Shown here piece after piece: positions 8,767 to 61,588 of a stretch of DNA of 64,000 nucleotides. The position numbers and the translations under genes were made by a program. The stretch is from Eledone cirrhosa (taxonomy: Eukaryota): assembly GCA_964016885.1 (NCBI GenBank), contig OZ024740.1, forward strand, positions 233,368,001 to 233,432,000. The letters run 5' to 3'. Under the pieces are notes generated by a model. The model did not search any database, was not told where the DNA came from, and saw only the letters and a list, made by a program, of their open reading frames with translations. Every line of letters begins with the position of its first letter. Position 1 is the stretch's first letter.

Positions 8767-9000
8767 AGCACTCAACGTACTTTTTCCACATAGGAGTGAC
8801 GGAGTAAATATCGAATAAGTAAAAGCGAAGTAGTTTCAGATGTTCAAGTCCTTTAATAATAATGCTGCGATATATAATTCAGTGACGACACTGGCCACAC
8901 TGTGGCCAGTCTGTGGCCAGTGTCGTCACTGAAATATATATCACAGCATTATTATTAAAGGACTTGAACATCTGAAACTACTTCGCTTTTCCTTATTCTA
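8767..9000. mobile_element. Palindromic PLE-like terminal fragment (3' half of HHR plus tail hairpin)
   Basis: Arms 8812-8900 and 8912-9000; GAAA-tatata-TC; ACTCC..TTGAGTGCT tail on the left arm only. Confidence 0.65.
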
Positions 9001-9534
9001 TATATATATATATGCACATTTCGTTGCTTCACCATCTTTGTTTGTTTACACTCTCGTGTCCCCTTTATTTACGTGTCCCAACGACTTTTTTTAGCCGTTG
9101 CTCGCACCAACCGGAGGTATATGGTCGTTAAAGCGATGAAATACCAATGATGGTTGGAAGATCACTGATGAAGGACTAATTTATTCATATATATATATAT
9201 ATATATATATATATATATATATATGTGTGTGTGTGTGTGTGTGTGTGCATATATATATATATATATATATATATATATATATGCATGTGTGCGTCGGTTT
9301 ATATCTGTGTGTGTGTTTGAGTGTTGTTTAAGTGTAGAAACGCATGTAAAATTGATTTGTTATACGTGCGTACATACAACTGTAACTGGTACTATTCTAA
9401 TCATGTAATGTTTTCGTTTATCACACACATGTGAGATACACTGACCCAACTGCCTGACCTTTCAGATTACATGATTGAGTAATACTATTGACATGTCAAA
9501 TTTGATAGGTACAGATTGAGGTATAAATAGATAG

Positions 9535-11848
9535 ATATATTTCTTTATTTGCCACAAGGGCGCATAAGAAAAGGGGACAATACAAAGATACATGCCGGGG
9601 ATTTTACATACAATCGTGTAAAAATATTAAAACAAACAAATTTAACAATAGAAATCTCCAATAGGGGGGAGGCGTTACAAATGGGTTGTTTAATACCCCG
9701 TCGATAGAACAACCCTCAACTCAAGGAGCGTGTTGTGCAAGTGTTCCTTTCTTCATTTTGCTCTATTCTTCAACCTAAAGGTTTATATACAGAGAAGGCC
9801 CAATCACTCGGGCAATTTTTGCTACACTCTCCCACCTTTCAGTAAATTTACTGGGGTGCAGTACCTCTCTCTCTACTCTGATTCTCCGTCTAAAGTGGTA
9901 CCTAAAGAAGGTAATGAGTTGTTGTCCGGAGAGAATGGCATCTGTCCTCTGTCCTCTCAATCTCGTCCACCATATAACCTCTTTCACCTTAGCCACTAAA
10001 CAGAGGAAAACCGCCTCTCTTTCGTTTTTGAAAGAAGTTGGCGGTTTGATCCCTACTATGGACTCGGCAATCAACTGGATTTGTCGCATACACGAAAGCA
10101 GTTGTTCTGCATAGTTCCACAGGTCGGTTACGCCCGGGCAGTGTACAATTGCGTGCAAGACGGTTTCAATGTCTTGCTCACATCTTGGACACGTCCTCTT
10201 GGAAGGATCCCTGCCGGGGCGTCCGTGCCTGTAGATCTTCTCTCGAACGGGTAGAGCTCCTCGGTAGCACTGCCAGGTCAGGGACCTCTGGAAGTTGTCC
10301 ATAGGTCCCGGGCGGAAAGTTCTACCAAACAGACTCGTGAGCTCGCGGTCTTCGACGCCCAGAGTCTCTCCGCGCACGTCGTCACCTTTGTGACGTACTA
10401 ATCCTCTATAGAATGTCGAAGTGGAGTCTCCACTGATTGCTGTGCCCGCTTGAGAGAGGACTGTGAGCGCCTCAGCGCATTCAATGTGCCAGGCGCCCAC
10501 CTTCTTCGGTCACCGCTTGACCCAGGACTGCAGCTCCGTCAGCGAGACAAGTTGCGGGAAGGTCTGTCTCACAAACGGTGCCCACACCGGTTGGTCGGTG
10601 ACGAATACCTGGAGATGCCGTAATCTCAGCGCACATTTGCACATCATCAGCTACGGCATTCCCATCCCTCCGTTGGAAGGGTGCTGACAGCAGACGGATC
10701 TCCTCACCAGTGGAGCCTGCTTCTTCCAAAGGAACTGGAAGAGCATGCGTTCCATCTTGGTGAGGTGTTCACGGGGACAAGGGACGACGGTCAAGCGGTA
10801 GTAGATGACCGTCGGGCAGATATTGGCGTGCATTGCTTTGATCCAGCCTCTGAAGACGGGTCCGAAACCGGCCGCCTTGAGAACCGCATCCAAGTATCGA
10901 TGGTCGACCCTATCGAACGCTTTAGACTGATCTAAATTGATCAGAGCCCCACCGAAGCCGGGTTTACACCCACCCTCTCTATGATGTATCGCATGAGGTG
11001 GAGGTTGTCGTGTATGGACCTGGTCGGGATTGCACACGTTTGCGCTTTCCCTACCAGGTTCTCGACGACAAGCGCCAACCTCGTTGCTAACACCTTGGCC
11101 AAAATCTTTAACTCAGTGTTCAGCAGAGTTATGGGCCTAAAGTTTCTTAGTTCGTCCCCCTTGTTCTCGTCTTTCCTGATCAGCGTTACTACGCCCCTGC
11201 CTGCAGAACTGGGAATTCTCCCGTTCTGCTGCCAGTTGCAGTAGACGGCTTCGAGGACGCCAGAGAAAAAATCCGGCAAGCCTATGTAAAACTCATAGGG
11301 TAGACCATCTAGACCGGGTGATTTGCGTTTCCCACAGCGGCCCTCAGCGTCCCGTATCTCAGTGGCTGTGACCGGTCTTTCGTAGAACTCAGCGTCCATG
11401 CTCGAGAGACGCGGCAGACCGTCGAGCTATAAACCGAAGTCCATTGCCCCGTTCGGCGCACCGCCGCTCTGCTTAAACAGTCGCGTAAAGCGCCGCTGAA
11501 AGGCCGTGCACATCTGCCTGGAGTCAAGTAGCACGCGTCCGTTTTTGTTTTTCAAAAACCTAATCGTAGACTTCTTGCCACTTTCCGCTTCTGCCACTCG
11601 GACCCAGCTAACAGCTTTTGCTCCCTCGTTTCCTAAAGCACGTGATCTACTCCTGACCACGCAGCCTTCGTGTTTCGCATCGAAGAACTGGTCTAGTGCC
11701 GTTCTCGTTGCTAGCACTCTAGCTGCGTTGCACTCCTAAGCGCCTCCTCTACCTTGGCTACTAGTTCTCTTTCTGCCTTGTTTTTCTCTAAGGCTAATTA
11801 TTTGCTAAAAGTTATCGACTCTACGCTAATTGCTCTCTTGAGAGAGGG
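9535..11848 (-). mobile_element. L1/Tx1-clade LINE ORF2 relic with 3' end (copy 1)
   Basis: KSPGLDGLPYEFY, NFRPITLLNTELKILAK, LDQSKAFDRVDH, zf-RVT CPRC..ETVLHAIVHC; AATAAA at 3' end; RT core (QG..PLS to YADD) deleted. Confidence 0.88.
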
Positions 11849-11849
11849 A

Positions 11850-60325: not shown

Positions 60326-60482
60326 AATTTACTACCGGTATATGTAAATTAGATTGATCGATTTGCATATTTAATAAATTCCAGACAGCTTGTTCGATTA
60401 ACACATTACCGATTGATTATCAGTGTTTTATTTCAATGCCAAACAGCCCTATGTAACATACCAATAGATATTAAAAAAGACA

Positions 60483-60510
60483 GGTTAGGGTTAGGGTTAG
60501 GGTTAGGGTT
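60483..60510 (+). repeat. Interstitial (TTAGGG)4
   Basis: ggttagggttagggttagggttagggtt. Confidence 0.9.
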
Positions 60511-61387
60511 GTATTTATATACAATGCATTCATGTACAGAAGAAAAGGGATACATTTCAGTTAAGGATTCAAACTAATTCAGTTGTCCTCTGTACAACTA
60601 TAAGGAGTACTCGATACTTCCCCTAGTCTGTCATAGCTTACAGCTCTATATGGACGTTTAAATTGAATAAATAAATAATAAATAAATATATAATTAATAT
60701 AGATAATAATTATATATTTTTTCATATATTCCAATATCTTAATAACAAAGCCGTAAAACATTATGCACACAAGCACACATACAAAATAGGAACGTCATTC
60801 TATTCCTCCCGTAGCATATCATTGAATTGAAATATATTCATGGGTACATTTTTTTCTGGAAGGCGTTATACATATATATTTTACTCGCTGAAGCATCTAT
60901 TCGAAGCTGAAACAGGTGAAACTCAGAGTAACACTTAGCTAAATTATAAATTATGACAAAACATATTGATCAATTTATTTATTTTTTTCTACACGTAATG
61001 CTTTGTACCATAACACAAGTGCACGTTCGCACGCACACACGTATAGTTGTGCATGTGTATCTGTGCATGTATGTATGTGTGCATGTATGTGTGCGTGTGT
61101 ATCTGTGGGTGCTTGTGGGGGGTGTGGGGTGTGCGTGCGTATATGTACTGGGACTTAACTTTGCATACCTGAAAGTTTAAGACTTAAAAGCAAGTACTTG
61201 ATAGTATCTGCGAAACTTTGAGTAAGACAGATTTAAGTCACAGTCTGTTTATACAAATCTGTACCCTTCACTACATATGTGTGGTTTTTACTAACCTTAT
61301 CCATACACATAGACTCTCACACGCATACGCAAACAGACACCAACACACACACACACACATATACATATATATGGGTTTGTGTGTGTG

Positions 61388-61588
61388 TATCCCGGGTTCA
61401 ATCTGGGGTAACCACAGTAAGTAAGGTACTCAATATATAGCAGAGTATAAATATTTAATATAGAGATGGCTTCTACAGGACTAGAACTGTTTCATTCGAA
61501 GGAAATCATCAGGAAAGCTGCTTTCTTGATGATTTCCTTCGAATGAAACAGTTCTAGTCCTGTAGAAGCCATTTCTATATTAAATATA
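61388..61588. mobile_element. Palindromic HHR element (same family as 44617)
   Basis: HHR 61469-61518 (-) intact; 61520-61569 (+) has core TTGATGA; tail hairpin 61425-61447. Confidence 0.85.

Follow-up and report, generated by a model that had tools for sequence, protein, structure and literature searches.

Twin bulged hairpins at the insertion boundaries of Hydra-clade Penelope-like elements in a TA-rich animal genome

Background

What sets the points at which an inserted repeat joins its target is the question raised by a 64,000-nucleotide (nt) stretch (C1:233368001-233432000, hereafter the window) of the 3-Gb, TA-rich genome of Eledone cirrhosa, which holds many short head-to-head repeats with hammerhead ribozyme cores and with (TA)n at their borders. 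In a first-pass annotation of this window, a hairpin of the form ACTC...TTGAGT had been listed at 14 sites downstream of such cores and read as a conserved cis element that sets the junction with (TA)n across unrelated families. All 14 sites do hold the motif at the listed coordinates and on the listed strand. Here, we describe this motif as a bulged hairpin of Penelope-like elements of the Hydra clade, in which it occurs twice, each copy a few nucleotides past one of the two insertion boundaries, and we consider how it could position the reverse transcriptase (RT). The origin of the one-sided tail and of the inverted repeats in Penelope-like elements is left to future work in both key papers.

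Results

Tail-less arms end just before the first hairpin

Among 154 motif matches, which fall into 23 clusters, 69 have an inverted partner, and in 59 of these the partner, which lacks the tail, ends within -12 to +1 of the ACTC, with a mode at -5. These 59 ends span 14 clusters and usually fall on a TA or TAT common to the (TA)n run. A gapped version of the comparison, covering the window and a sample of the genome (see below), placed 41 of 50 ends within -10 to +2, with two earlier ends and one spurious row. As hammerhead core and hairpin are separated by a variable distance (28-71 nt), the insertion end follows the hairpin. The predicted sharp peak upstream of the ACTC is therefore present, and together with the covariation reported below it supports the proposal of a conserved cis element that sets the junction. 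The opposite-arm ends listed earlier likewise run into (TA)n, except that those at 47022 and 49790 meet only short or interrupted TA.

Either arm of a pair can be the longer one: the tail-less arm in L017, L246 and at 40438-40980 of the window, the tailed arm in L245 and at 25940-28163. Near-perfect palindromes are found at 33918-34262 and 50351-50741.

A second hairpin lies past the tailed ends

In full-length copies, a second hairpin lies between the hammerhead and the ATG start codon, near the latter. It is mostly of the GCTC/GAGC type, and in coding families the ATG follows some 20-70 nt further on. Tailed arms enter (TA)n 3-7 nt before this second motif in eight of nine families, as judged by eye. 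For clusters 1, 2, 10 and 12, the second hairpin was seen in read-through copies that had been found without requiring it. Since tail-less ends lie before hairpin 1 and tailed ends before hairpin 2, the tail corresponds to the sequence that separates the two hairpins, and in this genome it is mostly 55-140 nt long. The earlier description of a shared tail hairpin at the insertion boundary thus holds for hairpin 1, but it overlooked the second hairpin that explains the other end. The sole full copy of hairpin 2 within the window (21784..21804) was missing from the earlier list. The copy at 23605-23760 is an exception, as it continues to ~23760 and so overshoots the distal site by ~15 nt, into the second hairpin.

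Several arrangements of the paired hairpins were seen in passing. In cluster 7 (L279, L280), the ~100-nt loop of hairpin 2 ends in AG, like an intron of the 5' untranslated region (UTR), and this cluster forms tandem arrays of near-identical 6-7-kb units, suggesting recent activity. L267 has a ~260-nt tandem unit made up of just the two hairpins, the tail and a portion of the repeat, which may represent a minimal non-autonomous element, while L271 and L278 carry a ~420-nt tandem repeat with two motif-like hairpins in which no hammerhead or open reading frame (ORF) was seen.

The hairpin has a fixed bulge and a covarying upper stem

The motif has RCTC/GAGY as its lower stem, a 3'-side bulge of 2 nt (TT, TC or TA) and a variable upper stem, with N-C-Y past the stem. 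The earlier description lacked the fixed 2-nt 3' bulge and the upper stem. The register with the 2-nt bulge pairs in 67 of 103 anchored sites, whereas other registers do so in at most 9, except for the same helix slid by one pair (47 sites); copies from the same family recur many times in these counts. A family-level pairing test was made on other organisms, with one hairpin from each of 42 metagenome clusters, after exclusion of 11 of 87 distinct instances in which the outer pair was open, mostly because hammerhead stem III had been taken as the 5' arm. Watson-Crick pairing at upper positions 1-3 is seen in 42/42, 29/41 and 17/23 cases, compared with 23.3, 12.1 and 6.9 in shuffles, and 0 of 5000 shuffles reach any of the three values. 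For the first upper pair, the search pattern had required a pyrimidine opposite a purine, while the second and third pairs were unconstrained. Bulges of 1 or 3 nt gave no such pairing signal in this one-per-cluster set. The check on covariation that had been suggested is thereby passed.

The window hairpins are by themselves marginally stable (z -0.8 to -3.0 across the 14 sites), and several copies are decayed. Among the 150 Rfam matches listed of 231, none reached the gathering score, and nearly all were microRNA models on simple repeats or palindromes. That the motif is simply hammerhead stem III was ruled out, as it lies 28-71 nt past the core and the GAGC variants misfit the cleavage triplet. 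As a separate observation, hammerhead stem III is itself ACTC/GAGT, like the motif's lower stem, in several Hydra families (PMC8557442 File S2; L299, L304, L308).

Occurrence in this genome and in other organisms

A tightened motif pattern gave 25,377 matches genome-wide, compared with 1,096 for the reversed pattern. The strict pattern of the first-pass annotation matched 5 times in the window (mean of 20 block shuffles, 0.25) and 53 times in an independent genome sample of 120 stretches of 10 kb (1.2 Mb), where one shuffle gave 4; a loose version showed no enrichment in the same sample (718 vs 726). A TA run followed 16-116 nt downstream in 68 of 76 descriptor matches of the sample, with a background of 0.16. 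Beside hammerheads, the motif is present at the 14 listed sites but is not a general trait of hammerhead-bearing repeats: downstream of matches to a strict hammerhead descriptor, which overlooked a bulged stem II, the first-pass pattern was found in 0 of 52, because that descriptor mostly chose families without the motif. Several hammerhead families in the window, for example at 35730-36934, have tails of their own that lack it.

Repeat families of this motif-less kind lie at 35730-36934, 31990-32520, 29298-29937 and 2121-3289 of the window; relatives of the first adjoin non-Hydra GIY-YIG ORFs and bear a ~55-nt tail of their own. L054 is a retrozyme-like tandem array of ~470-nt hammerhead-bearing units in at least 9 copies.

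An alignment of 47 proteins led to 78 Hydra-like metagenome loci in 59 clusters, of which 52 loci had enough sequence before the ORF. In these 5' regions, the motif was found in 45/52 and the twin motif in 35/52 (35/40 and 26/40 by cluster), compared with 1/52 reverse complements and 3/780 ORF windows. Past the hammerhead, it was found in 26 of 36 metagenome copies, and at least 4 of the 10 misses are tail-less ends in (TA)n; the four mappable TA junctions lie at -3, -5, -3 and -22. Among the published Hydra consensi (PMC8557442 supplement), the motif is clear in Hydra-2_Amil and Hydra-2_Ajap and occurs twice before the ATG in Hydra-1_Ajap, whose consensus begins 2 nt before hairpin 1; Hydra-1_Crog and Hydra-1_Obim show varied forms, and in Hydra-1_Amil it is not clear. 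No relative was found in viral contigs. The motif is thus real and clade-wide.

Protein motifs place the coding elements in the Hydra clade

A broken ORF with Hydra-clade motifs (as defined in PMC8557442 section 11) continues into a cluster 1 repeat in L017, and full-length cluster 1 copies (L245-L248) encode ~740 amino acids (aa) with RWR, DKT, YRDD, CxCX5C, CxxC and CxH motifs and no CCHH. Direct reading of L245 (741 aa) and L280 likewise gives a single ORF with an RT and, at the C terminus, an endonuclease of the GIY-YIG type, without CCHH. Besides cluster 1, clusters 0, 2, 3, 5 and 7 link to Hydra ORFs. The N-terminal motif is RWR, RWK or RWI in clusters 1, 2, 3, 5 and 7, and DKT replaces DKG in clusters 1, 2 and 7. 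The CxCX5C linker, as well as CxxC and CxH around a conserved E and N, are seen in L017, L246, L247 and L280, while the first Cys of CxCX5C is replaced in L245 and L248. A canonical hammerhead in the pseudo-long terminal repeat (pLTR) and insertion in (TA)n, both by which the clade is recognized, are present as well. L245 and L280 are 48% identical over 321 aa, and other Hydra-like ORFs of the sample are mostly 32-52% identical to L245. Since Pfam found no family in the 741-aa ORF of L245 or in the ORF of L280, the assignment to the Hydra clade rests on these motifs and on likeness to published Hydra proteins. A cephalopod was the sole eukaryote named among the protein matches.

The units of cluster 10 (2 kb) and cluster 12 (1.3 kb) are non-coding, each with both hairpins, and no ORF was found in the body of cluster 22; an 80-aa frame in cluster 10 was ruled out as a gene, being often broken by stops. 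Together with the 46905 copy, these three clusters are likely non-autonomous derivatives, and their membership does not rest on protein. As all ORF-linked clusters are Hydra and the remainder are non-coding or lack an ORF, the families of the window appear from their sequences to be divergent members of one clade with likely parasites. Five families of the window link to Hydra ORFs and three to non-coding units. The earlier view of unrelated families is not borne out, every protein-linked family being Hydra.

Other GIY-YIG elements were also encountered. The elements reached by a Pfam GIY-YIG search were Neptune-like and Poseidon-like; in the output listed for 40 such loci, the canonical hairpin was linked to these ORFs in none. 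In Neptune-like families B (L160, L164, L157) and E (L142, L175), an ACTC and then a hairpin follow ~5 nt past the tail-less end. Seven copies of family B share that end point; the closing arm is degenerate and no second copy was seen. This Neptune-like hairpin may be an older shared signal or a convergence.

Other features of the window

The motif copies and associated arms are collected in Table 1, including a decayed hairpin at 46800..46826 that was recognized by eye. In the cluster 1 copy at 40511-40560, the tail terminates in a short piece that resembles the end of the cluster 10 tail in opposite orientation, possibly a template switch or a nested remnant. An abundant SINE-like (short interspersed element) repeat of ~190 nt often lies inside the elements (6132-6540, 8459-8600, 18160-18300, 27314-27460, 28539-28735 and others), and broken LINE-type (long interspersed element) RT ORFs of several families occupy 3886-6030 and 9775-19267.

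Table 1. Hairpins and related arms in the window (window coordinates; strand relative to the window)
Feature	Position	Strand	Remarks
Hairpin 1, non-coding 1.3-kb unit (cluster 12)	8767..8806	-	Tail-less arm end 8999; read-through copies carry second hairpin
Tail-less inverted arm, cluster 10	20668..20906	-	End ~6 nt before hairpin-1 position
Hairpin 1 with one substitution	21640..21703	+	Upstream repeat, 2-kb non-coding unit, cluster 10
Hairpin 2 (GCTC/GAGC), cluster 10	21784..21804	+	Directly past usual tail end; fold z -3.8
Hairpin 1, cluster 10, downstream repeat	23605..23667	+	Copy extends to ~23760
Hairpin 1 (GCTC/GAGC), cluster 22	28036..28057	+	Tail-less arm end 25940 (-5)
Hairpin 1, cluster 5 (Hydra ORF in L268, L269)	29981..30024	-	Tail-less arm end 30472
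Hairpin 1, cluster 3 (Hydra ORF in L265, L266)	33891..33919	-	Tail-less arm end 34255
Hairpin 1, cluster 1 (full-length Hydra element in L245-L248)	40610..40633	-	Tail-less arm is the longer arm, end 40968
Hairpin 1, relative of cluster 22	42096..42118	-	
Hairpin 1, cluster 2 (Hydra ORF in L282-L284)	44688..44710	+	Single arm
Decayed hairpin 1, cluster 0	46800..46826	+	By-eye comparison with cluster 0; not in first-pass list
Atypical motif copy	46905..46927	-	Fits 1-nt bulge only
Hairpin 1, cluster 3	47381..47409	-	Tail-less arm end 47514
Hairpin 1, relative of cluster 3	49559..49587	-	Tail-less arm end near 49790
Hairpin 1 with long insert, cluster 7 (Hydra ORF in L279, L280)	50745..50826	+	Tail-less arm end 50351 (-4)
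Hairpin 1, cluster 1	51193..51216	-	Tail-less arm end 51430
Hairpin 1, cluster 2	61425..61447	-	Tail-less arm end near 61588

Discussion

Each hairpin probably docks one RT/endonuclease unit on the RNA and so fixes the start of copying ~5 nt upstream. The GIY-YIG domain would cut both strands of a (TA)n run, after which one free end would anneal to a short, UA-rich stretch immediately 5' of hairpin 1 and prime the tail-less arm, while the other would anneal to the stretch immediately 5' of hairpin 2 and prime an arm that copies through hairpin 1 and thereby acquires the tail. Joining of the two complementary DNAs (cDNAs) at their truncated ends would yield a head-to-head pair with a one-sided tail. 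Hairpin 2 would lie behind the polymerase and normally go uncopied, hence its absence from truncated copies. A signal that acts on the template before or at priming is indicated because the distal end keeps a set position relative to a hairpin outside the product, and either arm may be the longer, which fits two independent cDNAs. Docking of one unit per hairpin is favoured because the Poseidon protein of Anolis, a predicted dimer, cuts both strands and extends them, starting at two internal sites of the RNA, one on each side of the tail (PMC11167929). In a bolder version, to which we incline slightly less than to its opposite, the twin hairpins would be a two-site loading code, with a dimeric telomerase-like RT binding both and each subunit priming one end of the double-strand break at a set distance from its own hairpin.

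Several points weigh against docking at each hairpin. A long tailed arm can be copied only from an RNA whose 3' end holds hairpin 2; single insertions do not provide this, and tandem arrays or circular RNA therefore have to be assumed. Arrays do exist. Wobble pairs in the upper stem (6 G.T vs 5 A.C) do not tell which strand folds. At the distal boundary, offsets were read by eye and not from a scripted table, hairpin 2 of clusters 0, 3 and 5 was found by a pattern that required two motifs, the read-through copies of cluster 7 came from a partly biased pattern, and for cluster 22, the ninth family, no read-through copy was found. Hairpin 2 is also variable, with no bulge in cluster 2, only 1-2 upper pairs in clusters 1 and 12, and the very long loop of cluster 7. 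At the first boundary, three pairs are tailed on both arms (6 of 50 rows), 10 of the 69 partner ends lie off the peak, some of them owing to indels that break the ungapped extension, and the loci of the junction histogram were partly picked by motif or family and hence are not independent.

The inverted pairs might instead be made by antisense self-priming or by fold-back of cDNA, with the endonuclease resolving the product at single-stranded DNA hairpins. Self-priming on an antisense template (PMC3846280) and endonuclease-mediated resolution of the tail (PMC8557442) have both been proposed, and the near-perfect palindromes of the window, as well as wobble pairs that leave the strand undistinguished, would agree with such a route. 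Fold-back from a tailed cDNA, however, cannot yield the longer tail-less arm of L017, L246 and window 40438-40980, so that arm lengths rule it out as the sole route, and junction and target have short TA microhomology in common, as expected from priming; we therefore hold this explanation to be improbable. It also seems unlikely that the hairpins mark RNA cleavage or 3'-end formation ~5 nt upstream, followed by ordinary target-primed reverse transcription (TPRT) from the new 3' end. The same junctions would be predicted, and the motif is a structured RNA beside a hammerhead, but no catalytic core is evident in a hairpin of 16-28 nt, and the Poseidon start is internal and unaffected by 3' extension of the RNA or by hammerhead cleavage (PMC11167929).

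We give very little credence to a role of the hairpins in translation of the nearby ATG, in packaging or in control of the hammerhead, with UA-rich microhomology alone setting the ends. Hairpin 2 does lie shortly before the ATG and the ends do coincide with TA or TAT; yet longer UA runs just past the hammerhead are seldom used, the ends track the hairpin over spacers of differing length, and both hairpins are retained in non-coding units (clusters 0, 10 and 12). Nor is an endonuclease recognition site on the target DNA, the other role first suggested for the motif, likely, since insertion is into (TA)n and the covariation of the upper stem is that of a single-strand structure.

A short motif shared by cnidarians, echinoderms, crustaceans and this genome predicts both insertion ends within a few bases; it opens the question of the tail to direct tests with mutants and can mark element boundaries in the annotation of a very abundant family, for which one endonuclease query gave 55,959 first-look candidates. 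If true, the loading code would account by a single rule for the tail of Penelope elements, for their head-to-head repeats and for mobilisation in trans, and it would amount to a programmable double-ended TPRT system directed at (TA)n. Because these RTs are the sister group of telomerase, their positioning on RNA also bears on the origin of telomerase template use.

Comparison with known systems

L1 twin priming likewise yields an inverted structure, with cDNA primed from each end of a cut target. Its priming sites are the poly(A) and an internal site that varies, and its two cDNAs do not overlap, whereas here the motif fixes both starts and the arms overlap. The template-boundary element of telomerase, to which the motif had been likened, is a structured RNA 5' of the template that positions the RT by ending copying, and hepadnavirus epsilon is a bulged hairpin that templates protein priming from its bulge; here, in contrast, the start lies 5' of the hairpin and the primer would be target DNA. 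The telomerase analogy therefore has the wrong polarity, the hairpin being 3' of the start and behind the polymerase, and hairpin 1 being copied through in tailed arms.

Earlier work had already established the tail, the inverted pairs, the bias for (TA)n and dual internal starts. As described for Poseidon and Penelope (PMC11167929; PMC8557442; PMC3846280), the tail is likewise an optional extension on one head-to-head arm, the target is AT-rich and two starts bracket the tail; the available passages on the tail in these papers name no cross-family sequence or structure signal, and among the papers listed by full-text searches of mainly non-subscription literature, none points by title or abstract to a conserved twin hairpin in Penelope-like elements. 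Poseidon needs RNA ~55 nt 3' of its start (out to +172, with the start at +111-118; PMC11167929), and the RNA printed in the methods of that paper has, by eye, a bulged hairpin of different sequence at ~+121 to +148. The Poseidon start is, however, described inside an AC-rich stem-loop, whereas here it lies ~5 nt 5' of either motif copy, and Poseidon tails, at 30-40 nt, are shorter than most of those found here. With the Hydra clade as described (PMC8557442), the elements share the protein motifs, the (TA)n target, sense hammerheads and a hairpin within the consensi; the word 'hairpin' is absent from the main text, as available, and the motif is unremarked there. They differ in size, the published Hydra elements being <3 kb, whereas those of this genome have 3' UTRs of at least 1.5 kb and units of up to 4-7 kb.

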